25,065 nt of DNA from positions 1 through 25,065 of the forward strand of contig CAZFKW010000004.1 in assembly GCA_964519795.1 (NCBI GenBank), in the 5' to 3' direction. A program made the position numbers and the translations under genes. This stretch comes from an uncultured Ramlibacter sp. (GTDB lineage Bacteria > Pseudomonadota > Gammaproteobacteria > Burkholderiales > Burkholderiaceae_C). Positions 1,397 through 23,266 of this stretch are shown here, piece by piece. The first letter of the stretch is position 1, and every line of letters begins with the position of its first letter. The notes beneath the pieces are model-generated. The model searched no databases, was not told the DNA's origin, and saw only the letters and a list, made by a program, of their open reading frames with translations.

Positions 1397-2758
1397 ATGC
1401 TTCTCGACGAATTCGCCGCATATTGCGCCGCAGAAGGCCTTCGTGACTTGAGCGCAGAGGTCCGCGGCCACGCCCGCCGGGCCCTGATTGACTGGGCCTC
1501 GGCCCTCTACCCCGGCACCCTTGTTGCACCGGGAACCGCCATGGTTGCCGCGCACCGCGCCGAACTGGGCGTGGGCCGTTCAAGCCTTCCCGGGTTCGGA
1601 ACGACCTGCTTCCCGGCCCTGGCCGCATGGATCAATGGGACTGTGTCGCATACCGTGGAGATGGACGACATCTTCCGCGACGCTATCTATCACCCTGGTT
1701 GCCCCACGATTGCTGCCGCCCTGGCGGTGGCCGAGGACATCGGCGCGACGGGTGACGAATTGCTGCGCGCCATCGTCATCGGCTACGAAGTCTCCACCCG
1801 TATCGGTGCGGCCGTACAACCTGCGCACTACCGGTTCTTTCACACCACCGGCACGGCCGGCGTTTTTGGCGCCGCAGCGGCTTCAGCGGCCCTGCTCGCG
1901 CCCGGCAAGGCCGATGTGGCCTTGAATGCCATGGCCACTGCGGCGTCATTTGCCTCCGGCCTGCAACAGGCCTTCCGGTCGGACGCCATGACCAAGGCCC
2001 TGCACGCCGGCCATGCCGCCCAGGTCGGCGTGCAGGCGGCGCAGGCTGCGGCGCAGGGCGTCACCGGCGCGGCCGACATCCTGGAAGGCGCAGCCGGCTT
2101 TGGCGCTGCACTGGCGGGCAGCCCCTCGTGGAGGGGTGCCACTGACGGCCTGGGGACGGACTACAACATCGGCAGGATCACCATGAAGGCGCATGCCTGC
2201 TGCGGCCATACATTTGCGGCCATTGATGCGGCGGTCGCGCTGCGCGAGACACCCGGCTTTGACATCAACCAGGTGCGCGCCATCGACGTTGAAACCTATC
2301 AGGTGGCGCTTGACGTGACCGGCAACCCCGACCCCCGCACCGCCTTCGAGGGCAAATTCAGCCTGCCGTTCGTGGTCTGCCATGCGCTGGTGCATGGCTC
2401 GGTGCGCCTTGACGCGTTTGGCCCGGAACGGCTGGCCGACCCGGCCATCCGCCAGTTGATGAAGACAGTGCACCTCGTTGCAGATCCTGCCATGACAGCA
2501 GGCTTTCCTTCGCTGCGTTCAGCCCGCATGCGCATCACCTTCGCGGACGGCAGTACGCTTGACCACCACTCCCCCTATCGCAAGGGGGACCCCGAAGCAC
2601 CGCTGTCAGACGCTGAACTGGACGCGAAATTCCGCGAGCTCGTTGCGCCCGTGCTCGGCGATCTCCGCGCCAACTCACTGCTCGCGCAGTTCCGTGAGCT
2701 CGGCGCGCAGCCCGTCTCTTCACTTGACCTTTCGGCACGCGCACAAGCCGCCTCCTGA
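1397..2758 (+). CDS. MmgE/PrpD family protein
   Basis: NGTVSHTVEMDD, YHPG, GYEV, HTTGT, KALHAG, KAHACCGH and KFSLPF motifs. Start moved to ATG 1397 (GAGA upstream). Confidence 0.92.
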   Translation: MLLDEFAAYCAAEGLRDLSAEVRGHARRALIDWASALYPGTLVAPGTAMVAAHRAELGVGRSSLPGFGTTCFPALAAWINGTVSHTVEMDDIFRDAIYHPGCPTIAAALAVAEDIGATGDELLRAIVIGYEVSTRIGAAVQPAHYRFFHTTGTAGVFGAAAASAALLAPGKADVALNAMATAASFASGLQQAFRSDAMTKALHAGHAAQVGVQAAQAAAQGVTGAADILEGAAGFGAALAGSPSWRGATDGLGTDYNIGRITMKAHACCGHTFAAIDAAVALRETPGFDINQVRAIDVETYQVALDVTGNPDPRTAFEGKFSLPFVVCHALVHGSVRLDAFGPERLADPAIRQLMKTVHLVADPAMTAGFPSLRSARMRITFADGSTLDHHSPYRKGDPEAPLSDAELDAKFRELVAPVLGDLRANSLLAQFRELGAQPVSSLDLSARAQAAS

Positions 2759-2771
2759 TACCGACCCGCAC

Positions 2772-4898
2772 ATGAAACCCGAAGCCATGCCGTCGCCGCC
2801 CCACTCGATCTCGCTGTTCGATGCCATCTTCTCGCCCCGTGCCGTGGCGCTGGTGGGTGTGTCAGGCGATGCATCCCGCAACACTGCCAGGCCCCTGCGC
2901 TTCATGCGCAAGCATCGATATGCAGGAAAGATCTACCCGGTCAACGCGACCCGCGCTGAGGTGCTTGGCGAGAAAGCCTGGCCTTCGATCGCAGCCATTG
3001 GCGAGGACCCAGGCAGCGGCACGCAAGTTGACCATGTCTTCGTGATGATTGCGGCCTCCCAGGTTGAACAGGCACTTGAGCAAAGTGCGGCGCTCGGCGC
3101 GCGCGTTGTCACCGTTTTCTCTGACGGTTTCGGCGAAGCCGGCGAAGCGGGACAGAAAAAGCAGGACGCCCTGGTAGCCAGGGCGCGCGCGCTGGGTTTG
3201 CGGCTGATCGGCCCCAACAGCATCGGCACCGTCAACACCCACAATGGCGCACTCATCTCGGTGAACGCGGTATTCGAGATGGAGCACCTGCCCCCCGGCC
3301 CCATCAGCATGGTCTCGCAAAGCGGCTCCATGCTGGGGTCGCTCCTCTCGCGCGGTGCGGTACGGGGATTCGGCTTCGGCAAGCTGCTGTCTGTGGGCAA
3401 TGAGAGTGACGTGACGGTCGGCGAGATTGTCGACGGGCTGGTGGACGACCCCCAGACCAAAGTCATCACACTCTTTCTCGAAACCCTGCGCGATGCGCCC
3501 GTGCTGGGCCAGGCACTGGACCGCGCGCGGCTGGCGGGCAAGCCGGTCATCGCCTACAAGCTCGGCCGCTCGGAGATGGGCAGTGCACTGGCGCAGTCGC
3601 ATACCGGTGCGCTTGCAGGTAACGACGCGGCCGTCGATGCCTTCTTCCGCGCGCATGGCGTGCTTCGTGTGGAAATGCTGGAGTCATTGTTCGAGATGAC
3701 GCCACTGGCAACGCGTTATGTCAGGGTGCCATGCATTACCGGCCGCAAAGCCCGGCTGGCCGTGATAACCACCACGGGTGGTGGCGCGGCTGCGGTGGTG
3801 GACCGTCTGGGCCTGCGCGACATTGATGCCATTGCGCCACCTGCCGCGTTCGTCGAGCACATGCTTGCGCGGGGCCTGAAGATACGCTCGCAGCCAGTGG
3901 TGGACCTTACACTGGCCGCCACCAGCGCGCAGTACCGCGACCTGGTGGAGCAGATGTTGCAAAGCGACTGGTGCGACGGTGTGTTGAGCGTCGTGGGCTC
4001 ATCAGCGCAATTCCATCCGGGCCTGGCTGTGAAGCCCCTGCTGCAGGCAGACAAGCCGGCGGACAAGCCCCTGGCGGTGTTCCTCGCGCCTGACGCTCAG
4101 CAGTCGCTGAAGCTCCTGCAGGAAGCCGGCATCGCCGCCTTCAGGACTCCTGAGGGCTGCGCGGATGCGTTGTCAGCCTTTTTCTCGCGCCGTCCTCAGC
4201 AAGTCAGCGTTCCGCTGGCAGCACCGGTGTGGCCCGACGGCGTGCCACGGCACGGCGCACTGAATGAAATGGAAGCTTCTGGCGTCTTCTCGGCGCTGAA
4301 AATCCGGATGGCCGAGACGCGCCTGCTCAATGTCAACCGTCTGGAGCACGGCCTGTCCTACCCGGTGGTGTTGAAAGTCTGCTCCCGGGACATCGCACAC
4401 AAGACCGAGGTCGGCGGCGTTACCGTGGGCATTCGCGATGAAGCGTCGCTTCGCGCACGCGCGCAGGAGATGCGCGAGCGCGTCGCGCTGAACGCACCTG
4501 ACGCCGAAGTGGACGGGTACCTTGTGCAGCGCATGGAAAAGGGCCTGCTGGAGCTGATGCTGGGCTTTCGCCATGATCCGCTGGTCGGCCCCATCGTGGT
4601 GCTCGGCGCGGGCGGCATCACCGCCGAGATCACGCCGGACGTTTCGGTGTCAATGGCGCCTGTCAGCCGCGAACGCGCTGTCGAGATGATCAGCGAGGTA
4701 CGTGCCACGCGACTGGTCCGGGGATTCCGCGGCTTGCCCCTGGGCGACTGCGACGCGCTGGCAGATGCCATCGTGGCCTTCTCGATGCTTGCGCTGCACA
4801 AGGCCCCCGCCATTGCCGAAGCGGAGATCAACCCGCTCTTCGTCAAGCCCGAAGGCGAGGGCGTGGTGGGCGTTGACGGCCTGATCGTCCTGCGCTGA
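2772..4898 (+). CDS. Acetate-CoA ligase family (NDP-forming acyl-CoA synthetase; fused CoA-binding, ligase and ATP-grasp domains)
   Basis: PRAVALVGVS, YPVN, IGPNSIG, SQSG, SVGNESDV, SHTGALAG, YPVVLKV..DIAHKTEVGGV and EINPL. Start ATG 2772 (alternative 2787), just after the upstream stop. Confidence 0.92.
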   Translation: MKPEAMPSPPHSISLFDAIFSPRAVALVGVSGDASRNTARPLRFMRKHRYAGKIYPVNATRAEVLGEKAWPSIAAIGEDPGSGTQVDHVFVMIAASQVEQALEQSAALGARVVTVFSDGFGEAGEAGQKKQDALVARARALGLRLIGPNSIGTVNTHNGALISVNAVFEMEHLPPGPISMVSQSGSMLGSLLSRGAVRGFGFGKLLSVGNESDVTVGEIVDGLVDDPQTKVITLFLETLRDAPVLGQALDRARLAGKPVIAYKLGRSEMGSALAQSHTGALAGNDAAVDAFFRAHGVLRVEMLESLFEMTPLATRYVRVPCITGRKARLAVITTTGGGAAAVVDRLGLRDIDAIAPPAAFVEHMLARGLKIRSQPVVDLTLAATSAQYRDLVEQMLQSDWCDGVLSVVGSSAQFHPGLAVKPLLQADKPADKPLAVFLAPDAQQSLKLLQEAGIAAFRTPEGCADALSAFFSRRPQQVSVPLAAPVWPDGVPRHGALNEMEASGVFSALKIRMAETRLLNVNRLEHGLSYPVVLKVCSRDIAHKTEVGGVTVGIRDEASLRARAQEMRERVALNAPDAEVDGYLVQRMEKGLLELMLGFRHDPLVGPIVVLGAGGITAEITPDVSVSMAPVSRERAVEMISEVRATRLVRGFRGLPLGDCDALADAIVAFSMLALHKAPAIAEAEINPLFVKPEGEGVVGVDGLIVLR

Positions 4899-4930
4899 CC
4901 CCTTTGAACAACCATCCCTGCACAGAACAC

Positions 4931-6079
4931 ATGAATTTCAATCTTTCTCCCGAACAGGCCGAATTCCAGACCGCAGTGCGGCGCTTTGCCGAAAAGCACC
5001 TCAAGGCAGGCGCGCTGGCGCGCGCCCACTCCGATGACTACCCGCGCGACGTGGCGCAGTTGATGGCGGCGCAGGGCCTGCTGGGCATCACCATTGCCGA
5101 GGCCGACGGCGGCCAGGGCGGCAGCCTGATGGATGCCGTCATCGCGATCGAGACCATCGCCTCCGTCTGTCCGCGCAGTGCGGATGTGGTGCAGGCCGGC
5201 AACTTTGGCGCCATTCGCGTACTGGCCGAATACGGCAGCGCGCACCAGAAGGAAAATTACCTCAGGCCCCTGCTTGCCGGGAAGACGCTGATTGCCGTCG
5301 GCATGACCGAGCCGGGCGCAGGTTCCGCCGTCACCGAGCTTGTCACCGCAGCCACGCCCGATGGCGACGGATTCCGCATCAATGGCAGCAAGATATTCAC
5401 CACCCATGGCCCGCACGCCGACGTGTTCCTGACCTATGTGCGCTTCGGCCCCGGCGTCAGGGGCATTGGCTCGGTGCTCATCGAGACCGCCATGGAAGGC
5501 GTCACGCTGGGCAAACGCTCGCGCTTCACCTCGGGGGAGGAATGGGTGGAAATCTTCTTCAACAACGTGTTCGTGCCGAAAGAGATGGTCGTGCTGGGCG
5601 AAGGCGGTTTCAAGAAGCAGATCGCAGGCTTCAACGTCGAGCGGCTGGGCAACACCGCCCGCTCGCTTGCGCTGGGTCGCTATGCGTATGAAGAGGCGCG
5701 CCAGTGGGCGCTCCAGCGCAGGCAGTTCGGGCGCCTGCTGTGCGAATTCCAGGGCCTGCAATGGAAGTTTGCCGACATGCGCATCAAGCTGGACGCGGCG
5801 CAGTTGCTGCTGTACCGCGCAGCCACCAACGCCGACACCGGCTTTCCATCGCCCACGGAGACGGCCATTGCCAAGGCCTATTGCAACCAGACCGGCTTTG
5901 ATGTGGCCAACGATGCCATGCAGGTGCTCGGCGGCATGGGATACAGCCAGGAGTCGCTGGTGGAGTACTGCATGCGCCGCTGCCGCGGCTGGATGATTGC
6001 CGGCGGCTCCATCGAGATCCTGAAGAACCGGATCGCCGAAGCGGTGTTTGAACGGACTTTTTCACAGCGGCCGGACTGA
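4931..6079 (+). CDS. Acyl-CoA dehydrogenase family protein
   Basis: MTEPGAGS, NGSKIFTT, RRQFG, FQGLQWKFADM, QVLGGMGY. Start ATG 4931. Confidence 0.95.
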   Translation: MNFNLSPEQAEFQTAVRRFAEKHLKAGALARAHSDDYPRDVAQLMAAQGLLGITIAEADGGQGGSLMDAVIAIETIASVCPRSADVVQAGNFGAIRVLAEYGSAHQKENYLRPLLAGKTLIAVGMTEPGAGSAVTELVTAATPDGDGFRINGSKIFTTHGPHADVFLTYVRFGPGVRGIGSVLIETAMEGVTLGKRSRFTSGEEWVEIFFNNVFVPKEMVVLGEGGFKKQIAGFNVERLGNTARSLALGRYAYEEARQWALQRRQFGRLLCEFQGLQWKFADMRIKLDAAQLLLYRAATNADTGFPSPTETAIAKAYCNQTGFDVANDAMQVLGGMGYSQESLVEYCMRRCRGWMIAGGSIEILKNRIAEAVFERTFSQRPD

Positions 6080-6133
6080 ACCGCCCGGACTGCCATGCAG
6101 CCTGCCCACTGACACAACTGCCGGAGACAAATC

Positions 6134-6616
6134 ATGAACGCCAACACAACCGCGTCAAACGAATCCACACTGTCGTCCCGCCTGCTGGGCACACTCACCC
6201 TTGACATGGGACGGGCGCACGACCTGGGCGTCACACCCAGCGGCTGGCGCCGCATGCGTGAACTGCCCAGCGGCACGCTGGTCGGCCCCCGCATCAACGC
6301 CAGGGTGCTGACTGGCCTTGACGCCTTCCTGCGCAAGAGCGACGACAGCATGCACAGTGACGTGCGCCTGGCGATTGAGACCGATGATGGCGCGCTGATC
6401 TACCTGGCCTACCGCGGCGTGCGCTACGGCAGCCCCGAGGTCATGAAGAGGATCGAGGCCAACCAGCCCGTGAGCGACGACGAGTACTACCTGCGGAATG
6501 TGCCGACATTCGAGACCGCCAGCCCGCAGTACGAGTGGCTGAACCGCGTGATTGCCGTCGGCGTGGGGCGGCGCATGCCCAATGCGGTTGCCTACACCTT
6601 TCACGAGATCCTGTAG
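6134..6616 (+). CDS. DUF3237 domain protein
   Basis: DVRLAIETDDGALIYLAYRG and FETASPQYEWLNRVIAVGVG are typical of DUF3237. GGAGA RBS upstream. Confidence 0.88.
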   Translation: MNANTTASNESTLSSRLLGTLTLDMGRAHDLGVTPSGWRRMRELPSGTLVGPRINARVLTGLDAFLRKSDDSMHSDVRLAIETDDGALIYLAYRGVRYGSPEVMKRIEANQPVSDDEYYLRNVPTFETASPQYEWLNRVIAVGVGRRMPNAVAYTFHEIL

Positions 6617-6693: not shown

Positions 6694-7803
6694 TCAGGCG
6701 CTCTTGATGATGGTGTCCTGCGATGGAAGGCCTGCGCTCGTCTCGCCCCGGATGTACTGGTGCGGCACTGTCACCTTCGCGCCCAGCGTCTCTGCGGCAT
6801 GCCAGGCCCAGCGGGGATCGTTGAGGAAGCCGCGGCCGAGCGCGACAAGGTCGGCATCGCCACGCTCGACGATGGCCTGCGCATGCGCCGGATCACGGAT
6901 CAGGCCCACGCACATCGTTGCGACATCGGCCTCGCGCCGGACCTGCGCCGCATAGGGCACCTGGTAGCCGGGGCCAAGCGGTATCTCGGCGCGGGCGCTG
7001 CCGCCGGACGACAGGTCCATATAGTCGATGCCGCGTGCCTTCAGTTCGCGCGCAAACGCGACAGCATCATCGCCGGTGAGGCCGCCTTCGAGCCAGTCGG
7101 TGCCATTGAAGCGCACGCCCATCGGCTTGTGGGCGGGCCATGCGGCGCGCACGGCCTCGATCACCTCCAGCGGGTAGCGCATGCGGCCCTCGCGGTTGCC
7201 GCCGTACTCGTCGGTGCGCGCATTGCCAAGCGGTGACAGGAAGGAGCTGAGCAGATAGCCATGGGCGGCGTGGATTTCAAGCAGGTCAAGGCCCAGCCGG
7301 TCGGCGCGCCGCGTAGCCTTGACGAACGCATCCCGCACACGCTCGAGGCCGGCGCGGTCCAGGGCCTGAGGGGCTTCCCAGCCCGGGCCGAACGCGATGT
7401 CCGTGGGGCCGAAGGTCTTCCAGCCGCCTTCGGCCAATGGCAGGTTGCCGCGGCCGGCGCCGGGCGCGCGCACTGATGCCTTGCGCCCCGCATGGCCGAG
7501 CTGGATGCCGATCGGCATGCTCGCAAACGGCCGGACGAATGCGAGCACGCGTGCCAGCGCGGCTTCGTTTTCATCGGACCACAGGCCCAGGCATTCGGCC
7601 GTGATGCGGCCCTCGGGCTCGACGCCTGTAGCCTCGATCACCAGCAAGCCGGCGCCCGATACAGCGTACTGGCCCAGGTGGATCACGTGCCAGTCGGTGG
7701 CATTGCCGTTTACGGCGCTGTACTGGCACATGGGAGACACCACGATGCGGTTGGGCAGCGTGAGATCGCGCAATTTGAAGGTCTGGAACAGGGCGCTCGG
7801 CAT
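6694..7803 (-). CDS. NADH:flavin oxidoreductase, Old Yellow Enzyme family (YqjM/NamA-like)
   Basis: NRIVVSPMCQYSA, QLGHAGRKAS, EIHAAHGYLLSSFLSP, NARTDEYGG and ALGRGFLNDPRW. Start moved to ATG 7803. Confidence 0.95.
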   Translation of the reverse strand: MPSALFQTFKLRDLTLPNRIVVSPMCQYSAVNGNATDWHVIHLGQYAVSGAGLLVIEATGVEPEGRITAECLGLWSDENEAALARVLAFVRPFASMPIGIQLGHAGRKASVRAPGAGRGNLPLAEGGWKTFGPTDIAFGPGWEAPQALDRAGLERVRDAFVKATRRADRLGLDLLEIHAAHGYLLSSFLSPLGNARTDEYGGNREGRMRYPLEVIEAVRAAWPAHKPMGVRFNGTDWLEGGLTGDDAVAFARELKARGIDYMDLSSGGSARAEIPLGPGYQVPYAAQVRREADVATMCVGLIRDPAHAQAIVERGDADLVALGRGFLNDPRWAWHAAETLGAKVTVPHQYIRGETSAGLPSQDTIIKSA

Positions 7804-7935
7804 CGGTACTTCCATGAAAAAAAACGGGCTCACCGCATTGTCCGGGCAGCTGTGCACCATGCCATCCAATTGAGGTGGCCGGTGATGAAAAGCATCTTTG
7901 CAGCTCGCGCAACGACACATCCCCGTGCGGGCGGT

Positions 7936-8826
7936 ATGCTGTGCGGACAGGAGACATGCCTTGACTCATTCCATACCCCAAACCGCCGCGCCAATGCGCA
8001 GAGCAGCACGCCCATCACAAGGTACCCTGCGTACAACGCTGCGATTGTTGCCCACGCCGCCCGGGTGCTCGGGCCGGGTGTTGAAGTCGTGGTACGCGGC
8101 ACCTTGCGCCCGACCTTCGGCAAGTACACACGCGCCGCATTCTTCCTCAAGAGCAGCGACATGATGGACTCCATCGTCGCCGCGGCTGATGAAGGGTTTG
8201 ACGGCGTGGGGATTGGCTGCTTCCTCGACCCGATCCTGCATGAACTGCGCGAGATCCTGGATATCCCGGTCATGGGCCTGGCCGAAGCCGGCATGCATAT
8301 GGCCTGCATGCTCGGCCAGCGCTTTGCCATCCTGTCGCACTCCGAGGCGCTCAACGTCAAGGTCTATGACAGCCTGGCCGACAAGTACGGCCTTCGCGCC
8401 CGCATGAGCGGGATGCTTGCGGTGGACCTTCCCATGGACGCCCTCGAAACGGCCATTACCGGAGACCCGGCGCCAGCCATTGCCCTGATAACCGACGCAG
8501 CGAAGCGGCTCGTGGACCAGGGGGCCGAAGTGATCGTGCCGGGCTGCGGGCTGCTCAACCTCCTGTGTGTCCAGCAAGGCCTCAGCCAGGTCGCCGGCGC
8601 CACTGTGCTTGACGTGACCGGCGCACTGCTCAAGACAACCGAGACAATGATCACGCTGCGGCGGGTATCTGGCACCGGCGTGAGCCGCACCGGCTACTAT
8701 GCGCGCCCGGCCGAGGCTGATGTGCGCAAGACGCTCGCTTCGTTCGGCCGCGGCAAGGTGGGGGGAACCGAGGCCGCCCCGGCGTCCCGTGCTGCATCCA
8801 CGCCCGGACCAAAGGCGATGGCATGA
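7936..8826 (+). CDS. Asp/Glu/hydantoin racemase family protein (5' end uncertain, possibly damaged)
   Basis: Two-Cys motifs GIGCFLDP and VPGCGLL, plus LREILDIPVMGLAE. Recognisable family sequence begins at about 7999 (QSSTPI). In-frame ATGs only at 7885 and 7936, both without a good RBS. Confidence 0.8.
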   Translation: MLCGQETCLDSFHTPNRRANAQSSTPITRYPAYNAAIVAHAARVLGPGVEVVVRGTLRPTFGKYTRAAFFLKSSDMMDSIVAAADEGFDGVGIGCFLDPILHELREILDIPVMGLAEAGMHMACMLGQRFAILSHSEALNVKVYDSLADKYGLRARMSGMLAVDLPMDALETAITGDPAPAIALITDAAKRLVDQGAEVIVPGCGLLNLLCVQQGLSQVAGATVLDVTGALLKTTETMITLRRVSGTGVSRTGYYARPAEADVRKTLASFGRGKVGGTEAAPASRAASTPGPKAMA

Positions 8827-9992: not shown

Positions 9993-9993
9993 C

Positions 9994-10404
9994 ATGGAAG
10001 GCAACATTCCCCTGGAAGAGCCGGCGCGCACCATCGCGGCCATCACGCGCCAGCCCGGCATGCAGCGCTTTCAGGACGCTGCCGAACAAGGTGTGTTCCT
10101 GATTCCCCGCTGCAAGGGCTGCGGCCGGCACCACTGGTACCCCCGCCTGCTGTGCCCGTTCTGCTTCAGCGACGACATTGACTGGCAGTCAGCCACCGGC
10201 AACGGCACGGTCTACAGCTGGACGGTCATGCGCCGGGCAAAGCCTGCGTATGCGATCGCCTATGTCCGGATGGACGAAGGTCCCGTGGTGATGACGAACA
10301 TCGTGGGCTGTGATCTGGATTCAATCAGCATCGGCATGAGGGTACGCGCCGTGTTCCAGCCCGCTTCCAACGGGCCGCTCGTGCCGATGTTCAAACCCGC
10401 CTGA
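9994..10404 (+). CDS. DUF35 family Zn-ribbon/OB-fold protein (thiolase partner)
   Basis: CKGC..YPRLLCPFC zinc ribbon, G.GTVYSWTV, and EGPVVMTNIV..IGMRVRAVF. Starts 1 nt after the thiolase stop. Confidence 0.93.
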   Translation: MEGNIPLEEPARTIAAITRQPGMQRFQDAAEQGVFLIPRCKGCGRHHWYPRLLCPFCFSDDIDWQSATGNGTVYSWTVMRRAKPAYAIAYVRMDEGPVVMTNIVGCDLDSISIGMRVRAVFQPASNGPLVPMFKPA

Positions 10405-10434
10405 ACCGCCGCCGCCGGCCCGGACCGCTGCAGA

Positions 10435-12723: not shown

Positions 12724-12736
12724 GCGCAGCGCCCGC

Positions 12737-16330: not shown

Positions 16331-17418
16331 ACAGCTTCCGCAGCGACAGGCACGGCGGCCACGTGTGGCTTGTCGTTGGCGATCTCCTTCTGCACTGCCG
16401 GAATGATCACCTTGTTCCACAACTCAAGCTGCCTGAGCATCAGCTGGTGGTCAAAGTCGCCCACCTGCGTCTGCAGGGCCACATGCACGGGGCGCACGGC
16501 CCGGATGTCCGCCACAAGCCGCTCGACCACCGTATCCACCGAGCCGACGGGCAGGTTCTTCATGAGCTTGTCCCAGGGCAGCTCTTCGTCATAGGGCTTT
16601 TCCATGACAAGGTAATCGTCCTCGACGGACTCGGTGCGCTGCTTCAGGCTCACGGCAATGCGTTGCTGATACCGGGCGCAGTCCACATAGTGCTCGACCT
16701 CCGCCTTGTTGTCGCTCGCAAATGCAAAGCGCAGCAGGCCGACTTTTGCCTTCGCCGGGTCCTTGCCCTCGGCGACTGCCAGCTCGTCAATGACACCGCG
16801 GAACCCGCCCAGCCGCTTGGTGCCGCCCAGCCCACCGGAGATGAACACGTGCTGGTCGCGGCGCAATGCATGACGCATCAGCATCGGGTCGCCGCTGGCG
16901 ATCCAGACCGGCGGCATCGGTGTCTGCACCGGACGCACGCTGATGGCGGTCATCGGCTGCTTGAAGTGCTTGCCGTCGTAGCTGAACTTCTTCTGCGCCA
17001 TGGCCAGCTCGATCATGTCGAGCATCTCCAGCGTCTTTTCCTTGGCGTTCTCCAGCGTGATGCCAAAACGCTCGAACTCGAACTGCTGGTATCCGCCGCC
17101 AACGCCAACGTTCAGCCGGCCACCCGAGAGCTGGTCAGCCATGGCGATCTCGGCGATCAGCCGGGCAGGCGTATACAAGGGTGCCACAACCACGGCCGAT
17201 CCAAGCCGGATCTTTTCAGTGACGCCGGCGCAGTACGCAGCCATCATCAGCGGAGAAGGGCAAAGACCATAGTTTGAGAAGTGATGCTCTGCATACCAGG
17301 CCGCTGCAAAGCCATTGCGGTCAGCCACCTGCGTCTGCTCGACGGCCTCTTGTATGATTTGACCGGAGGACTTCTTCTGGTTCCTCTGCTGCATCAAGAT
17401 GAAAATTCCGAAGTCCAT
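16327..17418 (-). CDS. Luciferase-like (LLM) flavin-dependent monooxygenase
   Basis: MDFGIF, WYAEHHF, CPSP, TEKIRLGSAV, AEIAMADQLSGGRLNVGVGGGY, P.Q.P.PPVW. AAGGA RBS. Confidence 0.93.
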   Translation of the reverse strand: MDFGIFILMQQRNQKKSSGQIIQEAVEQTQVADRNGFAAAWYAEHHFSNYGLCPSPLMMAAYCAGVTEKIRLGSAVVVAPLYTPARLIAEIAMADQLSGGRLNVGVGGGYQQFEFERFGITLENAKEKTLEMLDMIELAMAQKKFSYDGKHFKQPMTAISVRPVQTPMPPVWIASGDPMLMRHALRRDQHVFISGGLGGTKRLGGFRGVIDELAVAEGKDPAKAKVGLLRFAFASDNKAEVEHYVDCARYQQRIAVSLKQRTESVEDDYLVMEKPYDEELPWDKLMKNLPVGSVDTVVERLVADIRAVRPVHVALQTQVGDFDHQLMLRQLELWNKVIIPAVQKEIANDKPHVAAVPVAAEAV

Positions 17419-17498
17419 ATCGTTCCTTTTGGAGTTGCTGGCAGGCGCCCGGGGCGATGGAGATTCACCACGCCCGGCGCCTTGTCCCGGTGTTCAAA

Positions 17499-17527
17499 AT
17501 TCTAGGCAGCACCCCGGCAAAACAGAA
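17499..17527 (-). promoter_or_regulatory. Candidate sigma70 promoter for the LLM operon
   Basis: Minus-strand TAGAAT (-10) at 17499-17504, with a poor -35 (TTCTGT) 17 nt upstream, as expected for an activator-dependent promoter. Confidence 0.5.
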
Positions 17528-17550
17528 GGCACAGGCTGCGTACACCTTCT

Positions 17551-17565
17551 TTGCAATATCTGAAA
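17551..17565. promoter_or_regulatory. Candidate LysR recognition site TTGCA-N5-TGAAA
   Basis: Interrupted dyad containing T-N11-A. It overlaps the lysR start codon and is centred about 65 bp upstream of the predicted LLM start site. Confidence 0.6.
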
Positions 17566-18494
17566 TGAAGGCACTCGACACCATCCGGATCTTCGTGATC
17601 ACCCTGCAGACCGGAAGCCTTTCGGCGGCAGGCCGCAGCCTGGGTCTGTCACCCGCCACCATCTCGCGGCGCATCAGTGCGCTGGAAGAGGAACTGGGCG
17701 TACAGTTGCTGGACCGCACCAGCCGCAAGCTCACCGCGACGGATTCGGGCGTGATCTTCCAGCAGAGGGCCGAGGCCATCCTGGAAGACATGGCGCAGGC
17801 GGAGAACGCCGCGCGCCACGCCAAGGCCGCACCGGAGGGCCGCCTGCGCGTGCATTCACGCACACTGGTGGGCATCCAGCTGATCGCGCCATTGCTGCAC
17901 CGGTTCTCCGCCCGCTATCCCGAGCTGACCATTGACCTCCACCTGTCGGAGGAGCCCGTCAACCTGGTCGAGCAGAACTATGACGTGGACTTGCGGATCG
18001 GCAAGCTGGAGGATTCTTCTTATGTCATGCGCAAGCTTGGCACCGGGGAGCGGGTACTTGTCGCCAGCCCCGCCTATGTCGAAGCCCATCCCCCGGTCAA
18101 GGTGCCGGAGGACCTGGAAAGCGGCCACAACTGCCTGACCTACCGCAAGGCGCAGGAGCCCACGTTCTGGCGCTACCTGCATGGCGACCGCGTGCGCGAA
18201 CTCAAGATCAGCGGCACCGTGCATGCCAACAACGGCGAAGTCCTGCGCCGGGCGGCGTTGAGCGGCCTGGGCCTCGCGCTGCTCGCAGACTGGTCGGTCA
18301 ACGAAGACATCCGGGCCGGCCGACTCGTGCGGCTGCTGCCGGGCTACCGCCTGACAAACTCCACCTTTGACAACGGCGTGTACGCGCTGTTCCGGCACAC
18401 ACGGATGCTGCCGCAGGTTCGGGTATTCGTGGACTTTCTTGCCGACGCGCTGGGCGAGGTGGAAGCCGCAACGGACCCTGGCAGGCCCGGGTGA
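17565..18494 (+). CDS. LysR-type regulator (CrgA/DmlR-like), divergent from the LLM operon
   Basis: GSLSAAGRSLG.SPATISRRISALEEELGVQLLDRTSR HTH, P.G.LRV, and NNGEVLR.AAL.GLG. Confidence 0.96.
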   Translation: MKALDTIRIFVITLQTGSLSAAGRSLGLSPATISRRISALEEELGVQLLDRTSRKLTATDSGVIFQQRAEAILEDMAQAENAARHAKAAPEGRLRVHSRTLVGIQLIAPLLHRFSARYPELTIDLHLSEEPVNLVEQNYDVDLRIGKLEDSSYVMRKLGTGERVLVASPAYVEAHPPVKVPEDLESGHNCLTYRKAQEPTFWRYLHGDRVRELKISGTVHANNGEVLRRAALSGLGLALLADWSVNEDIRAGRLVRLLPGYRLTNSTFDNGVYALFRHTRMLPQVRVFVDFLADALGEVEAATDPGRPG

Positions 18495-18649
18495 CCGGGC
18501 ACTGCCTGATTTTTCAAAGCTTCTTTTCCTTTCCGTCACAGTCAGCCAGCCCGTGTGTGCCTAAGATGGCCGCACGGCAAGCCGCCAGATCCGGCAGCTT
18601 GCCCGGACCGGCACGATCCGGAACTGCGAACACGGAGACAAGACAAGAC

Positions 18650-19516
18650 ATGGCCATGATGCCACCCACTTCCAGCAACGCGCGCGGACCCACGCCGGTT
18701 TCCGCGCCGGCTTTCGCGGACGGTTGCCTGGAAGGCCGTGTGGCGGTCGTTACCGGGGCCGGTGGCGGCCTGGGCGGATCGATTGCAGCGCGACTCGCTG
18801 CCATGGGTGCGTCTGTGGTGCTTGCCGACCTGGATGCACCTTCAGGACTACCCTCCTCCCGCTGCATGGCCATCGCATGCAACATCGCAGATGCCGATGC
18901 GGTGGATGCCATGGGCCTTGAAGTGGAGAAGCGCTACGGCCGGTGCGACATCCTGGTCAACAATGCCGGCACCAAGGCCATTCCCGTATCACTGGAAGAT
19001 CTTCCTGTCGCCGACTGGGACAAGGTATTCAGCGTCAACGTGCGCGGCGCCTTCCTGTGCGCGAGGGTCGTGGCAAGAATGATGCTCGCCCGCGGATCGG
19101 GCTCCATCATCAACATTGCCTCCATCGGTGCGCAGATGCCCACGCGCATTGGTGGCTACGGACCCAGCAAGGCCGCCCTCATCGGGCTGACACGCCAGAT
19201 GGCCGTCGAATGGGGGCCACGCGGCATCCGGGCCAATTCGGTCAGCCCCGGCCTGGTCAGGACGCCGATGTCCGAAGCCTTCTACAGCGACGTTCAACAG
19301 CACGACCTGCGCGTCGCCATGCTTCCGGCCCGCCGGATCGGCGTGCCGGAAGACATCGCAAGCGTCGTGGCCTTCCTGGCCACCGATGCCGCCGCCTTCG
19401 TGACCGGCCAGGACATCGTCGTCGATGGCGGCTACACCATTGCACCCCTGTTCAACGCACAACCCCAGTCCGCAGCTGCGGCCTATGCGCGCGGCGCGGG
19501 CGCGCCGAAAAACTGA
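18650..19516 (+). CDS. Classical SDR oxidoreductase (probably NAD-preferring)
   Basis: VTGAGGGLG, VLAD (Asp after beta-2), NNAG, NIAS, YGPSK, NSVSPG, FVTGQDIVVDGG. ATG 18650 has GGAGA upstream. Confidence 0.93.
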   Translation: MAMMPPTSSNARGPTPVSAPAFADGCLEGRVAVVTGAGGGLGGSIAARLAAMGASVVLADLDAPSGLPSSRCMAIACNIADADAVDAMGLEVEKRYGRCDILVNNAGTKAIPVSLEDLPVADWDKVFSVNVRGAFLCARVVARMMLARGSGSIINIASIGAQMPTRIGGYGPSKAALIGLTRQMAVEWGPRGIRANSVSPGLVRTPMSEAFYSDVQQHDLRVAMLPARRIGVPEDIASVVAFLATDAAAFVTGQDIVVDGGYTIAPLFNAQPQSAAAAYARGAGAPKN

Positions 19517-19563
19517 CGCAGAGCAACCTTCACTTCACACACCAACCCTATGGAGACAACCCC

Positions 19564-20532
19564 ATGAAATTTCCCCGCTTGCTGATGGCCGTCCTGGCCG
19601 GCGCCATGAGCCTTTCCGCGAATGCGCAACAACCCATCGTTTTCACCAAGCCGATCACGCTGGTCGTGCCTTTCTCGCCTGGAGGTTCGACCGACCCGGC
19701 TGCCCGCGTGATCGCCCCGCGCCTGGCCAGGGAGCTCGGCCAGCCGGTGGTGGTCGAGAACAAGCCCGGTGCCGCAGGAGCCCTGGGGACCGCTTACGTG
19801 GCACGCTCCGCGCCGGACGGCTACACCGTCCTGCTCAATACCAACGTGGTCGCCATCCTTCCGCACACGCAGAAGAATCCCGGCTTCGACATGCGCACCG
19901 ACATCGTGCCGGTGATGTTGATGGCGTCGGGCCCATTCACGCTGGCCGTCAACCCGGCACTGCCGGTCAACTCGGTGCAGGAACTCCTTGCCTACAGCAA
20001 GGCGAACCCCACCAAGCTGTTCTATGGCACCTCGGGCCCGGGCTCCACCCTTCACCTGCTGACCGAACTGCTGAAGAAGTCCTCAGGCCTGCAGATGACG
20101 CACGTGCCATACAAGGGCAATGGCCCTGTGGTGACAGCACTCATCGGCGGCGAGATCCAGGCTGCCTTCGATACCGTTCCCGGCTCCAAGGCCATGGCCG
20201 ACGCCGGCCGGGTGCGGCTTCTGGCCGTGACCAGCGCCGAGCGCCACAGGTTGCTGCCCAACGTTCCCACACTGGCTGAGTCCGGCATCAAGGGCTTCGA
20301 GGCAGAGACCTCGGTCGGCATCTTCCTGCCCAAGGGCGCGTCGGATGCCATGGTGCAGCGCTACTACCAGGCGCTGGTCAAGGTGATGAATGACGACGAC
20401 GTCAAGGCCAGGCTCAACGATATCGCCTTCCGCATTGTGGCCTCCACGCCGGAACAGTTCAGGAACCGCCTGGACGCGGAGTCCCGGCAGTGGGCCGAGG
20501 TCACGAAGAGTGCAGGCATCAAGCCGGAGTAA
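19564..20532 (+). CDS. Bug/TctC family periplasmic substrate-binding protein
   Basis: Signal peptide, PITLVVPFSPGGSTD, QPVVVENKPGAAG, APDGYT, HVPYKGNGP and PNVPTLAESG. GGAGA RBS. Confidence 0.96.
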   Translation: MKFPRLLMAVLAGAMSLSANAQQPIVFTKPITLVVPFSPGGSTDPAARVIAPRLARELGQPVVVENKPGAAGALGTAYVARSAPDGYTVLLNTNVVAILPHTQKNPGFDMRTDIVPVMLMASGPFTLAVNPALPVNSVQELLAYSKANPTKLFYGTSGPGSTLHLLTELLKKSSGLQMTHVPYKGNGPVVTALIGGEIQAAFDTVPGSKAMADAGRVRLLAVTSAERHRLLPNVPTLAESGIKGFEAETSVGIFLPKGASDAMVQRYYQALVKVMNDDDVKARLNDIAFRIVASTPEQFRNRLDAESRQWAEVTKSAGIKPE

Positions 20533-20535
20533 GCT

Positions 20536-21435
20536 TCAGGCGCTGCTGCCTTCTTCCCGCAAATACTCGAGCAGCTCGGCAACGGGCTGGCTCATCGCCA
20601 GGGCGTCGCGCACGCAGACATAGAACTGCCGCTCCGCCCAGTCGTCGTTCAGGCGCAGCAGCACCAGGCCCATGTCGTCCAGGTAGCGCCTGGCGATCAG
20701 CTCGGGAACAATGGCAATGCCCAGCCCCTCGCGGATCATCACGCAGCGCGTCTCGAAATTTGACACCTGCAGCTTGACGTTCGGAGGCCGCGAGATCGTC
20801 CGGTCGACCAGCTGGAGGAACGAGTCGAGCGAGTGGCGCGGGAAGTAACCCAGCAGGTCGTAGTCCAGCGCATCCTCCAGGAACAGCGACTTGCGATCGG
20901 CCAGCGCATGGTCGCGCCGCACCACCAGGCCAACGCGGTCGGTGCGGTAGCGGTAGGACACCACACCCGGTGCGAGGTAGGCGGCGTGGTAGATCCCGAT
21001 GTCGGCATCGCCGTCCACGATCATGCGGGGAACATCGTAGCTGTGGCTCTCCAGCAGGTCCACCCGTACATCGGGCCGCGTTGCAAGGTACCGGGCGAGC
21101 GGGACAGGCAGGAACTGCAGGATGGTGGACGGGTTGGACGCCAGGCGTATCTTGGGCAGGCCGTCTGCGTCGAAACCGGCAATCGACTCTTCCACCATCT
21201 GCGCATTGCGAAGCAATGCCTTGGCCTGCCGGTACAGCAGTGAGCCGGCCGGCGTGGGCTCGACCCCCCGACCATGACGGTACAGCAAGGCCTTGCCGAA
21301 GCGCCGTTCAAGCTCGGCAATACGCTTGCTCACAGCCGAGGTGACGAGGTCGTTGCGCTCGGCGGCGCGCGAAAAGCTTGTCTCCTCCACGGCGGAGACG
21401 AAAATCTCCAGGTCGGCGGTGTTGATGCGTTTCAT
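20536..21435 (-). CDS. LysR-type transcriptional regulator
   Basis: SFSRAAER..VTSAVSKRIAELE..FG..LLYR..RGV.PT.AG HTH and GLGIAIVP. Confidence 0.95.
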   Translation of the reverse strand: MKRINTADLEIFVSAVEETSFSRAAERNDLVTSAVSKRIAELERRFGKALLYRHGRGVEPTPAGSLLYRQAKALLRNAQMVEESIAGFDADGLPKIRLASNPSTILQFLPVPLARYLATRPDVRVDLLESHSYDVPRMIVDGDADIGIYHAAYLAPGVVSYRYRTDRVGLVVRRDHALADRKSLFLEDALDYDLLGYFPRHSLDSFLQLVDRTISRPPNVKLQVSNFETRCVMIREGLGIAIVPELIARRYLDDMGLVLLRLNDDWAERQFYVCVRDALAMSQPVAELLEYLREEGSSA

Positions 21436-21445
21436 TCGTCCTGCT

Positions 21446-22477
21446 TCATTTGTCCTGCATGGCGCGGGCCGTCAGCGGCCTCAGCACCCGGCCACCCAGC
21501 CACGCCAGTACATTCTCCACCGTGTCAGTGAAGAAGCCCCTGAAAATCCCTTCGGTGGAAAAGCCCAGGTGAGGTGTGAGTACGACGTTGGGCAATACCG
21601 TCAACGGGTGACCCGGCGGCAAGGGCTCCTGGTCGAATACATCCAGGCCTGCGCCTGCGATGCGCTGCTCACGCAAGGCCTGCAGGAGCGCCGCCTCGTC
21701 CACCAGCGGGCCTCGCGCGGTGTTCACCAGCACCGCGCTGCGCTTCATCATGGCAAACTCTGCCGCGCCCACCAGGCCGCGCGTGCGCTCCCCCAGGATG
21801 ACATGCAGGCTGATAAAGTCGCTGGTGCGAAACAGCTCCTCCCTGGTCACGTATCGCGCGCCGGCTTCGCTTGCGGCCCCGGCCGTGAGGTTCTGGCTCC
21901 ATGCGACAACGTCCATGCCAAATGCCGCACCGATGGCCGCCATGCGCCGCCCGATCCGGCCCAGGCCGACGAGGCCCAGGCGCTGCCCATGCAAACCCAG
22001 CCCCACACGGCTGGCCCAGTGCCCCTGCCGCAACTGCGCATCGCAGGCGGCAATGGATCGCCCCGCAGCAATCATCAGCCCAAAGGCGAGCTCGGCCGTG
22101 GAATGCGCGCCGTCCTCCCGCGGGGTGGTATGCGAGACCGCAATGCCACGGGCCTCGCACGCGGCCAAGTCGATGGTGCGGTTCCACGGTCCGGTGGCCG
22201 CGACGTAGCGCAGTTTCGGCAGCGCCTCTATCAGTGAAGACGGCAGCGGCATGCGCTCGCGAACCAGGCAGAGGATGTCATAGGGGGCCAGAACTTCGGC
22301 CGCCTCGCCGGACACTGACAATGGGCGGTCAAAGACGTCGATGTCGCACTGCGCGCGGACATCCGACCAGTCGGCCAATGACAGCGCCAGGCGCTCGTGA
22401 TCGTTGAGGATGGCCAGGCGGGGCCGCGGACGCGTCTGCTGCAAGGCAGCATCCGGCGAAAGTGATTCAGGTTTCAA
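21446..22477 (-). CDS. D-2-hydroxyacid dehydrogenase family protein
   Basis: GLVGLGRIG, LVNTARGPLVDE, GLDVFDQEP and LTPHLG (Arg/Glu/His catalytic set present). Start uncertain; TTG 22477 has AGGA upstream. Confidence 0.92.
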   Translation of the reverse strand: MKPESLSPDAALQQTRPRPRLAILNDHERLALSLADWSDVRAQCDIDVFDRPLSVSGEAAEVLAPYDILCLVRERMPLPSSLIEALPKLRYVAATGPWNRTIDLAACEARGIAVSHTTPREDGAHSTAELAFGLMIAAGRSIAACDAQLRQGHWASRVGLGLHGQRLGLVGLGRIGRRMAAIGAAFGMDVVAWSQNLTAGAASEAGARYVTREELFRTSDFISLHVILGERTRGLVGAAEFAMMKRSAVLVNTARGPLVDEAALLQALREQRIAGAGLDVFDQEPLPPGHPLTVLPNVVLTPHLGFSTEGIFRGFFTDTVENVLAWLGGRVLRPLTARAMQDK

Positions 22478-22521
22478 GGCTCGTGTTCCTGTGCGGCACT
22501 GCGGGGGATGCGGTACCTGTG

Positions 22522-22535
22522 TAACCTGCATGTTA
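22522..22535. promoter_or_regulatory. Near-palindrome TAACCTGCATGTTA in a divergent intergenic region
   Basis: 12 of 14 positions are self-complementary; lies between the dehydrogenase and EthD gene starts. Confidence 0.35.
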
Positions 22536-22567
22536 AGACAAGCCATCGTCCAAGACCATTGACTCCC

Positions 22568-23266
22568 ATGACAGCCACCTGGAAACGCTTTTACTTTTCA
22601 AGACGCAACGCAGCCCTCTCACCGGAGCAGTTCCCGCAGCGATGGCGACAGCACGCCAGGCTCGGGGCCACCTTCCCGGATGGCATGAAGCGCCACACAA
22701 GGCTCAACTACGCGCTGGTGGACCAGGCATACAGCCCGGGCGGAGCGCGCCGGTACGATGGCATCGGCATCCTCTGGCTGGGAAGCCCGGCCATGATCGA
22801 CTACGTCAATGAAGATCCGCTGTGCACGCCCACCATGCGGCGTGACGAGCTGTTCGTCTTCACCCAGCCTGTCTATGACTCGGCGATGCTGGTGGAAGAG
22901 CGCATCTGCAAACCGGGACCGCTGACGAAGTTTGCACTGCTGTGGTTCATCCGGCGCAGGGCAGGTGTCAGCGACGGTGACTTCGGCCAGGCATGTGAGG
23001 CCATTGGCCGGGCGCTCTCGGGTGCCGATGCTGCCGCGCCGGTCCGCCGTTGCGCATGGGGTACCGTGGTGCGTGAGCCCACCATTGATTTCGACAGCAT
23101 GGTCGAGTTCTGGTTTGACTCACAGGAGGACGCGGTGGCCGCGTCGGGCAGCGCCGGGTTCAGGACCCAGGCTCTGGATCCACTGGGCTTTTCAATCGAT
23201 GGCGAGGATGCGCAGGCCCTGTACCTTGTCGGCATATGCCACGAGCGGGTGACACCGCCCGCTTGA
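22568..23266 (+). CDS. Tandem EthD-domain (dimeric alpha+beta barrel) protein
   Basis: Two repeats: RRNAALSPEQF..W.QHA...YDGIGILW and RRRAGVSDGDF...FDSMVEFWFDS. Confidence 0.8.
   Translation: MTATWKRFYFSRRNAALSPEQFPQRWRQHARLGATFPDGMKRHTRLNYALVDQAYSPGGARRYDGIGILWLGSPAMIDYVNEDPLCTPTMRRDELFVFTQPVYDSAMLVEERICKPGPLTKFALLWFIRRRAGVSDGDFGQACEAIGRALSGADAAAPVRRCAWGTVVREPTIDFDSMVEFWFDSQEDAVAASGSAGFRTQALDPLGFSIDGEDAQALYLVGICHERVTPPA

Follow-up and report, generated by a model that had tools for sequence, protein, structure and literature searches.

A stretch of 25,065 nucleotides from an uncultured Ramlibacter sp. (contig CAZFKW010000004.1, positions 1 to 25,065; hereafter the window) carries 22 contiguous genes between 1397 and 23266 with no housekeeping gene among them, and the question it raises is whether these genes serve one CoA-dependent catabolic pathway or several. 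A preliminary description, made from the letters of the sequence, had proposed a single 22-gene supercluster and had offered several adjacent modules as a fallback. The gene count and the lack of housekeeping genes were confirmed by Pfam scans and by the genes called in a metagenome contig of identical sequence (L001), and all the families it had named were found to be present by Pfam (the VOC protein via L001). The single supercluster did not stand, and on comparison of loci the fallback proved to be the better description. In our reading, which we hold with slightly better than even confidence, the window is a mosaic of three catabolic modules, whose core (6694-20532) is a LysR-controlled unit for a carboxylic acid, the C-C cleavage of which is probably of the retro-aldol type. 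The core substrate is probably a dicarboxylate or an oxo- or hydroxy-acid with a branch or a stereocentre; a branched, chiral or alicyclic oxo-/hydroxy-(di)carboxylate would fit.

The core was recognized by its conservation. A homologue alignment of its centrally placed protein, a flavin reductase fused to an FCD domain (reductase-FCD), was used to scan one genome per species, which yielded 206 relatives; 78 loci were fetched with 10 kb on each side and compared with the 22 window proteins by tblastn, and the Pfam-labelled gene contexts agreed with this comparison. Core orthologues were co-located in six genomes, namely Hydrogenophaga palleronii, a Hydrogenophaga metagenome-assembled genome (MAG), a Ramlibacter MAG, Bordetella genomosp. 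4, B. petrii and B. tumulicola, with identities of 54-93% overall across two bacterial families. The luciferase-like monooxygenase (LLM) was 81-93% identical in these genomes, the family III CoA-transferase 74-89%, the crotonase-fold protein 54-76%, the first of two short-chain dehydrogenases/reductases (SDR1) 78-89%, the MaoC hydratase 67-78%, the VOC protein 60-80%, the reductase-FCD 66-82%, the thiolase-fold protein 85-93%, LysR-type regulator 1 (LysR1) 73-92% and the Bug periplasmic receptor 62-81%, and gene calls placed the DUF35 protein in all core loci. The old yellow enzyme (OYE; 79-90% identical) was present in every core locus but that of Ramlibacter, SDR2 orthologues (65-82%) were noticed in Hydrogenophaga, B. 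petrii and B. tumulicola, the racemase was limited to the Comamonadaceae core loci, and a small flavin-reductase-like gene occurred in Hydrogenophaga and Ramlibacter only, being missing in Bordetella.

The gene order was not constant. In Ramlibacter one operon continued into Bug-racemase-thiolase-DUF35, and in Bordetella the OYE gene stood at the operon end and Bug-thiolase-DUF35 formed a divergent unit. Since the co-location has outlasted such rearrangement across two families, there is good evidence that the clustering of the core exceeds chance and that it is a conserved functional unit of 13 to 15 genes. LysR1 was divergent from the LLM gene in all orthologous loci (L004, L005 and L007 among them), the arrangement of a LysR-controlled operon, and the intergenic region between the two is the presumed control region. 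Neighbourhood co-occurrence across Burkholderiales, which had been suggested as a check on the supercluster, thus kept the 15-gene core together in six genomes and left the flanking modules A and C separate. Setting this conserved unit apart from its chance neighbours tells which genes belong together experimentally, and Burkholderiales genomes are rich in Bug-linked CoA-dependent clusters without an assigned substrate.

Module A, the left operon encoding an MmgE/PrpD-family protein (PrpD), an NDP-forming acyl-CoA synthetase (ligase), an acyl-CoA dehydrogenase (ACAD) and a DUF3237 protein, adjoined the core in just three places, namely the window, the identical contig L001 and a truncated MAG contig (L011, 76-91% identity), and among the loci compared the DUF3237 orthologue occurred only in L011. 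It was missing beside the core in the H. palleronii and Bordetella loci, and in Ramlibacter just an unrelated MmgE/PrpD gene was found there. PrpD-ligase-ACAD in the same gene order stood alone in Cupriavidus basilensis, behind its own LysR and Bug genes (L093 8001-12826), and PrpD-ligase stood alone in B. petrii, again with its own LysR and Bug genes and with an ACAD gene nearby (L094 4560-11473); the PrpD proteins of these stand-alone modules were 65-66% identical to that of the window, and the LLM core was near neither of them. B. petrii as a species carries both modules, the two loci being from different assemblies. Compared with the stand-alone modules, module A of the window lacks a LysR and a Bug gene of its own, has the extra DUF3237 gene and abuts the LLM core. 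In our reading it is a separate unit placed beside the core in this lineage, and so is module C at the right-hand end (20536-23266), whose LysR-type regulator 2 (LysR2), 2-hydroxyacid dehydrogenase (2-HADH) and EthD-domain protein were detected by tblastn in none of the orthologous core loci. The preliminary description had itself named independently occurring sub-operons as what would speak against a 22-gene unit, and PrpD-ligase-ACAD does stand alone elsewhere. Homologues of module A and C genes recurred here and there, each in just one or two of about 70 loci: an EthD homologue (56%) adjoined a reductase-OYE pair in Ottowia thiooxydans (L012), the sole related 2-HADH match was a 50% homologue adjoining a reductase paralogue (L070), and in Trinickia homologues of PrpD (51%), ligase (43%) and ACAD (64%) lay within 7 kb of a reductase paralogue. 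These recurrences hint at loose links between the modules.

The first unusual element of the core lies in its thiolase-fold/DUF35 pair. Both proteins are present as had been described, the DUF35 gene lying 1 nt downstream of the thiolase-fold gene as befits the partner in a thiolase-fold complex, but the thiolase-fold protein is without both thiolase cysteines. It fell into the NCBIfam subfamily PRK08142 (746 bits), and its PDB matches were 4u4e (297 bits), CtSal 9myr (183), TcLtp2 6ok1 (159) and BbsB 7pxp (134). In place of the nucleophilic Cys of SCP2-type thiolases, the Gly of DTGGSS aligned with the Cys of 7yvy (aaCaSG), and instead of HDCF/HDAF the protein has YDSF, which aligned with HDAF of both 7yvy and BbsB. 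Thiolysis is precluded when the nucleophile position holds Gly, and the two aldolases, CtSal and Ltp2, both use the Tyr as catalytic base (PMC12329534). The Tyr of YDSF aligned with Tyr294 of 6ok1, as would an Ltp2-type base. In Ltp2 the His of YDHF forms the oxyanion hole and Tyr344 is the acid, whereas Sal has the motif YDCY with an essential Cys304, of which the C304S variant is inactive, and Gln352, and its DUF35 partner Shy has a C3H1 zinc site (PMC12329534). The window protein follows neither pattern: Ser replaces the His of YDHF and the His of NNHPG occupies the Tyr344 position; in the Sal frame, Ser stands at the Cys304 position and His at the Gln352 position, and the DUF35 partner carries the canonical C-x2-C-x10-C-x2-C motif, a C4 zinc site. 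GGSS, YDSF and NNHP were invariant in seven orthologues and therefore represent a selected state, not decay, and the same active-site arrangement is found in the unpublished structure 4u4e. It is probable from these residues that the protein is a Sal/Ltp2-like retro-aldolase rather than a thiolase, with a third active-site arrangement that fits neither described type. The C-C cleavage foreseen for the cluster thus retains a fitting enzyme pair, though the cleavage would probably be aldolytic and not thiolytic.

The second unusual element is the oxygenase system. The LLM heads the main operon and shares it with the reductase, in the window and in all orthologous loci, as in two-component monooxygenases. 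The reductase had been described simply as such; it is present, and that account has to be amended in that it is fused to an FCD domain (which in GntR regulators makes up the effector-binding half) without a DNA-binding (helix-turn-helix) domain, and in that a second, degenerate flavin-reductase-like gene occurs in the same operon (13735-14313). The best NCBIfam match of the reductase half was the HPA-hydroxylase C1 reductase, and both domains were found in 120 of 120 best homologues (the best 120 of 2915 with E<=1e-10); the 206 reductase-FCD relatives were mostly from Comamonadaceae and Alcaligenaceae, beside differing oxygenase and CoA gene sets. In C1/HpaC of Acinetobacter baumannii, the C-terminal MarR domain is autoinhibitory until substrate binds, a behaviour called uncommon in a review (PMC10816480). 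The two proteins are alike in that a flavin reductase domain is followed by the ligand-binding domain of a transcription-factor family, but the window protein's C-terminal domain is FCD (GntR type) and not MarR, and its oxygenase partner is an LLM and not HpaB-type. Analogy suggests that the FCD domain may make NADH consumption responsive to a carboxylate.

The LLM belongs to a moderately large family that has no specific name in any source, and its nearest PDB entries were deposited as 'alkanal monooxygenase alpha chain' (8cbb, 112 bits). The pairing of an LLM and a distinct NAD(P)H:flavin reductase within an operon recalls the bacterial luciferase LuxAB-type two-component systems, but the best solved match scored just 112 bits and the window LLM is embedded in CoA-ester metabolism. 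SsuDE, EmoAB and the diketocamphane monooxygenases are likewise two-component LLM oxygenase systems. LLM paralogues of 49-65% identity were also clustered with a reductase, most of them with CoA enzymes as well. In Variovorax (LLM 64-65%) a LysR gene was divergent from LLM-reductase/FCD-ACAD-ACAD-crotonase-NDP ligase-SDR-VOC-SnoaL-ACAD, alongside which were encoded a family III transferase and an SMP-30/gluconolactonase-like (SGL) lactonase; in Oceanibacterium (LLM 56%) it was divergent from LLM-transferase-crotonase. A third type of cluster (LLM 49%; Variovorax, Ramlibacter and Hydrogenophaga) had LysR divergent from LLM-Bug-LLM-SDR2-like, a VOC gene in most loci and reductase/FCD, with CoA enzymes absent (for example L067 4402-10906 with VOC and L084 4421-10924 without it). 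These compact two-LLM clusters suggest that the LLM family acts on free carboxylates. Across the clusters LLM, reductase-FCD and LysR recurred as a nucleus, which VOC, Bug and SDR usually joined, and the CoA enzymes varied. Three unrelated loci (L087 8056-8949, L088 20236-21062 and L080 17951-18940) had SGL genes close to paralogues of the LLM or the reductase, which hints at lactone intermediates; the window has no SGL gene. Rhizobial LLM homologues adjoined NTF2-family proteins (L090 6282-10047 and L091 8033-10056), with an SDR gene too in the Rhizobium locus, and such neighbours recall LimABC. A plasmid search with the LLM was uninformative, giving 64% matches on Variovorax megaplasmids and 48% homologues among insertion sequence (IS) elements on conjugative Rhizobium and Sinorhizobium plasmids. 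The sequence allows several reactions for the LLM. It may oxidize a ketone in Baeyer-Villiger fashion, given the SGL lactonases in the vicinity of several paralogues; it may oxidize the aldehyde that the aldolase would release, given that the nearest solved relatives were deposited as alkanal monooxygenases; or it may epoxidize, given the NTF2-family neighbours of the rhizobial homologues. Heteroatom-adjacent hydroxylation is a further option.

The family III protein matched 10uh (251 bits), SUGCT (242) and YfdE (226) over BbsEF (103-123) and AMACR (68) in the PDB, its nearest structures also including ones of the formyl-CoA transferase kind, and the Asp of its GVSFVDMTTG, which we take to be the catalytic Asp, aligned with the Asp of the top match 10uh; this points to a succinyl-CoA-dependent dicarboxylate transferase. 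An AMACR-type racemase was considered and rejected for this protein, the 68-bit match covering the N-terminal part only as against 226-251 bits to transferases. The MaoC hydratase carries YRLNGDYNLLH, in which the Asp and His are invariant in orthologues; of the hydratase-2 reference motif, which we take to be [YF]-x-[LVIG]-[STGC]-G-D-x-N-P-[LIV]-H, the [STGC] position is Asn in all orthologues and the Pro position is variable. SDR1 has GQANYAAAK and presumably resembles the dehydrogenase part of MFE-2, its best NCBIfam match being PRK07791 (265 bits, under the cut-off of 373). With MFE-2/SCPx systems (HSD17B4; Hsd4A/Hsd4B of Mycobacterium) the core thus shares a split SDR (GQANYAAAK) and hydratase 2 (YRLNGDxNxxH) and an SCP2-type thiolase-fold partner, but this partner is without both catalytic cysteines and the family III protein belongs with the transferases rather than with AMACR-type racemases. 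The crotonase-fold protein has only one of the two Glu of canonical hydratases (presumably GGGCELAMMCD, the catalytic residues being rat Glu144 and Glu164): Ala replaces the first (GLGVALASWCD), the second (PE) is kept, and this state was conserved in seven orthologues. A role as standard hydratase is improbable; isomerase, decarboxylase or hydrolase activity is possible.

The OYE scored 327 bits against NCBIfam NamA (cut-off 431) and has the motifs PMCQY and HAAHGY. The nearest solved structure to the racemase was hydantoin racemase 3qvj, and both of its Cys motifs (GIGCF and VPGCG) were conserved. Compared with L001, otherwise identical to the window here, and with H. palleronii, the racemase gene of the window has a 10-bp deletion (GCATTCTCTG) after about 7997, directly behind the native ATG at 7994, which puts the native start out of frame. 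Upstream, the reading frame runs on without a stop as far as the ATGs at 7936 and 7885, so that an unrelated extension replaces the conserved N-terminus MRILW, and the deletion is either a defective allele or an assembly error. The VOC protein gave weak PDB matches only (Rv0577 and FosA3), its conserved motifs are by our reading without the usual His/Glu metal ligands, and homologues of about 60% identity accompany LLM paralogues in Variovorax and Ramlibacter clusters. A role as methylmalonyl-CoA epimerase was considered and dropped, there being no such PDB match. A 56% homologue of SDR2 was found within the LLM-Bug-LLM-SDR-VOC-reductase clusters. The Bug receptor matched 5oei (215 bits; presumably AdpC), Bug27, 2dvz and terephthalate-binding proteins, all at 180-215 bits; no discrimination between ligands was possible at these scores, and the protein was dropped as a clue to the ligand.

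From the observed gene content, conserved synteny and active-site residues we infer an order of steps, a range of LLM chemistries and a kind of substrate. LysR1 would control the divergent operons, and the Bug receptor would hand the carboxylate to a tripartite tricarboxylate transporter encoded elsewhere. SDR2 and the LLM/reductase pair would then oxidize and oxygenate the acid, with the reductase-FCD feeding reduced flavin to the LLM and its FCD domain gating the use of NADH on a carboxylate ligand, as the MarR domain does in HpaC/C1. The SUGCT-like transferase would form the CoA thioester, probably of a dicarboxylate, and the MaoC hydratase 2 would yield a (3R)-hydroxyacyl-CoA, to be either oxidized by the MFE-2-like SDR or cleaved by the thiolase-fold/DUF35 pair; this retro-aldol cleavage would release a short acyl-CoA and an aldehyde or ketone. 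OYE could reduce an activated double bond, and racemase, VOC and crotonase could adjust stereochemistry or double-bond position. The sequence of uptake, oxygenation, CoA activation, (R)-type oxidation and C-C cleavage that had been foreseen is thus supported for the core, not for the 22 genes as a whole. A more specific proposal, which we put forward as a tentative possibility, is that the core is an undescribed aerobic route for a non-steroid acid, in which the reductase-FCD, as a new class of ligand-gated flavin reductase, supplies the LLM only when substrate is there and a retro-aldolase of a third type (YDSF plus His, with a free-standing DUF35) cleaves the skeleton. If confirmed, the reductase-FCD with its 206 relatives could be a general means of preventing wasteful NADH oxidation in two-component oxygenases, and the cysteine-less YDSF protein could put DUF35-assisted retro-aldol cleavage outside steroid catabolism. 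The span is otherwise an ordinary kind of catabolic island with a few unusual enzymes.

Several points weigh against a retro-aldol route in a self-contained core. The core has no ACAD, thiolase, lactonase or aldehyde dehydrogenase, and because of this the pathway is incomplete as drawn. The LLM might perform any of the four reactions given above. The thiolase-fold protein has Ser where CtSal needs its Cys and His where Ltp2 has its acid Tyr, so that aldolase activity is not assured and the enzyme may act otherwise; the racemase allele of the window may be defective. Homologues of acyl-CoA synthetase/ACAD, EthD and 2-HADH near LLM or reductase paralogues (L012, L070, L080 and L087) are weak recurrences, with which some looser functional connection of the modules would be compatible.

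All 22 genes could instead make up one pathway, in which activation and desaturation of the substrate or of a product would fall to module A, oxygenation and cleavage to the core, and the handling of a 2-hydroxy- or 2-oxo-acid end product to module C. The contiguous layout without foreign genes would agree with this, as would the repeated A-plus-core arrangement in L011, the homologues of NDP-forming ligase and ACAD beside LLM paralogues in Ottowia (L012) and Variovorax (L087 and L089), and the EthD and 2-HADH homologues near reductase genes in Ottowia and L070. We consider it unlikely, as the six orthologous core loci are without modules A and C within 10 kb, C. basilensis and B. petrii have a stand-alone module A that is served by a LysR and a Bug gene of its own, PrpD is widespread and the core rare, and module C has its own LysR. 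It is also quite unlikely that the core performs thiolytic beta-oxidation of a substituted succinate or dicarboxylate in the manner of the bbs operon for (R)-benzylsuccinate (BbsEF, G, H, CD, AB), with CoA-transferase, hydratase, SDR and a BbsAB-type thiolase plus DUF35. The core does have the families of the bbs set (a family III transferase, a crotonase, an SDR and a thiolase-fold protein with DUF35), an ACAD is encoded in the neighbouring module, and BbsB and BbsEF are among the PDB matches. But BbsB keeps HDAF where the window protein has YDSF and is a distant match, the Gly at the nucleophile position is conserved in orthologues, the NCBIfam score to BbsB (147 bits) is far under the cut-off of 750, the transferase is nearer SUGCT and YfdE than BbsEF, and the bbs system has no LLM, OYE or VOC, its operon being devoid of O2-dependent enzymes.

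Degradation of a steroid or bile-acid side chain by the core, after Shy-Sal-Sad or ChsH-Ltp2, is very improbable by our estimate. The core is like Shy-Sal of Comamonas testosteroni (9MYR) and ChsH1-ChsH2-Ltp2 of Thermomonospora curvata (6OK1) in its MaoC-type hydratase, the Gly at the nucleophile position of a cysteine-less thiolase-fold protein, the Tyr-Asp motif and the DUF35 Zn-ribbon/OB partner; CtSal and TcLtp2 are among the nearest solved relatives, Comamonadaceae include steroid degraders, and SDR1 and the MaoC hydratase presumably resemble Hsd4A/Hsd4B. However, the active site has YDSF and His, neither YDCY/Gln nor YDHF/Tyr, the DUF35 protein is free-standing with a C4 site and not the C3H1 of Shy, steroid-ring genes were seen in no locus, and uptake of the Bug type and activation by a dicarboxylate-type transferase accompany an operon headed by an LLM. 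We give hardly any credence to the idea that organosulfur acids (3-sulfinopropionate or thiodipropionate, for instance) are the substrates of module A and the core, the ACAD being a desulfinase. The best NCBIfam matches of ACAD and ligase were 3-sulfinopropanoyl-CoA desulfinase (279 bits) and 3-hydroxypropionate-CoA ligase, and IAGG, with Gly at the MCAD-type Glu position, is common to the ACAD and the desulfinase 5af7, but these scores are far under the cut-offs of 600 and 1300 bits, respectively. Alignment with 5af7 and 5ol2 placed the Glu of FNVERLG, which we take to be at the IVD-type base position, where 5af7 has Gln, and Asp at the position of its Arg84, residues that were kept in L011 and L080, and a Variovorax thiodipropionate proteome paper names no LLM or flavin reductase. 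The idea was rejected on these grounds; by its residues, the ACAD of module A is to be read as a dehydrogenase with a Glu base, not a desulfinase. On comparison of sequences none of the known systems considered here was matched at the membership level. Our preferred reading is a three-module mosaic with a core that is probably of the retro-aldol type.

Table 1. Genes, presumed control region and transcription units of the window
Feature	Position	Strand	Basis
Module A gene 1: MmgE/PrpD-family protein, 453 aa	1397..2758	+	Pfam MmgE_PrpD_N, _C
Module A gene 2: NDP-forming acyl-CoA synthetase, 708 aa	2772..4898	+	Pfam CoA_binding_2, Succ_CoA_lig, ATP-grasp_5
Module A gene 3: ACAD, IVD-type catalytic base, 382 aa	4931..6079	+	Pfam ACAD N, M, C
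Module A gene 4: DUF3237 protein, 160 aa	6134..6616	+	Pfam DUF3237 123 bits
Core: YqjM-type OYE, 373 aa (alternative start 7860)	6694..7815	-	Pfam Oxidored_FMN
Core: two-cysteine racemase/epimerase	7936..8826	+	Pfam Asp_Glu_race
Core: thiolase-fold protein without thiolase cysteines, 389 aa	8823..9992	+	Pfam Thiolase_C_1
Core: DUF35 Zn-ribbon/OB-fold partner, 136 aa	9994..10404	+	Pfam zf-ChsH2, OB_ChsH2_C
Core: flavin reductase fused to FCD effector-binding domain, 327 aa	10435..11418	-	Pfam Flavin_Reduct, FCD
Core: small VOC/glyoxalase-fold protein, 125 aa	11465..11842	-	Pfam Glyoxalase on identical L001 gene
Core: (R)-specific enoyl-CoA hydratase 2 (MaoC), double hot-dog, 294 aa	11839..12723	-	Pfam MFE-2_hydrat-2_N, MaoC_dehydratas
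Core: MFE-2/Hsd4A-like SDR (SDR1), predicted (3R)-hydroxyacyl-CoA dehydrogenase, 316 aa	12737..13687	-	Pfam adh_short
Core, lineage-specific: degenerate flavin-reductase-like protein, 192 aa	13735..14313	-	Pfam Flavin_Reduct 26 bits, sub-cut-off; NCBIfam 53 bits
Core: crotonase-fold enzyme without first catalytic Glu, 263 aa	14310..15101	-	Pfam ECH_1
Core: family III CoA-transferase, SUGCT/YfdE dicarboxylate type, 408 aa	15104..16330	-	Pfam CoA_transf_3 396 bits, whole profile
Core: LLM, first gene of main operon, 363 aa	16327..17418	-	Pfam Bac_luciferase 199 bits
LLM/LysR1 divergent intergenic region, 146 bp, presumed control region	17419..17564	.	Coordinates and sequence
Core: LysR1, 309 aa	17565..18494	+	Pfam HTH_1, LysR_substrate
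Core: classical SDR 2 (SDR2), 258 aa (alternative start 18650)	18740..19516	+	Pfam adh_short_C2 208 bits
Core: Bug/TctC periplasmic receptor, 322 aa	19564..20532	+	Pfam TctC 237 bits
Module C: LysR2, 299 aa	20536..21435	-	Pfam HTH_1, LysR_substrate
Module C: D-isomer-specific 2-HADH, 361 aa	21446..22531	-	Pfam 2-Hacid_dh_C
Module C: EthD-domain protein, 232 aa	22568..23266	+	Pfam EthD 40 bits
Unit: PrpD, NDP-forming ligase, ACAD, DUF3237	1397-6616	+	
Unit: OYE	6694-7815	-	
Unit: racemase, thiolase-fold protein, DUF35	~7936-10404	+	
Unit: LLM, CoA-transferase, crotonase, flavin-reductase-like, SDR1, MaoC, VOC, reductase-FCD	17418-10435	-	
Unit: LysR1, SDR2, Bug	17565-20532	+	
Unit: 2-HADH, LysR2	22531-20536	-	
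Unit: EthD	22568-23266	+	

Open reading frames (ORFs) were picked by codon-position GC and then scanned against Pfam, and the transcription units listed in Table 1 were delimited by stop/start overlaps and short gaps. GC at third codon positions (GC3) was 0.75-0.86 across the genes, all 22 being supported as coding; the VOC gene was revealed via the gene calls of L001. No window protein reached an NCBIfam equivalog cut-off and hence no named pathway was assigned; matches above a subfamily cut-off were limited to the thiolase-fold protein (PRK08142) and a generic SDR subfamily. Literature searches for clusters of LLM, CoA-transferase and hydratase found nothing relevant, in line with the earlier remark that the cluster matches no named pathway. 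Promoter and terminator scans of the window gave sites no more numerous than in shuffled sequence, and tRNA and Rfam scans gave no matches.

The MmgE/PrpD protein is far from the 2-methylcitrate dehydratase PrpD equivalogs (NCBIfam scores of 61 and 30 bits, the respective cut-offs being 950 and 575); its nearest solved structures were IDS epimerase (131 bits) and cis-aconitate decarboxylase (99 bits), and homologues of 64-67% identity are numerous in Achromobacter, Bordetella, Cupriavidus and Paraburkholderia. The NDP-forming ligase was far under the cut-off of every NCBIfam equivalog and the 2-HADH of module C under all NCBIfam cut-offs. The degenerate flavin-reductase-like ORF of the core appeared to be translationally coupled to its neighbours. 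Identical proteins were matched only on Logan metagenome contigs, and the closest named genome was that of H. palleronii (reductase 82% identical). The GC content of the window was 64-68% throughout, with no sign of recent transfer in its composition. To the left of the cluster lies the 3' part of mnmA (6-755), and to the right ssb and an MFS transporter gene (23351-25065). Between mnmA and the cluster there is an ORF on the minus strand (765-1343, 131-192 aa) which had no Pfam match and was called in L001 as a gene of 131 aa.

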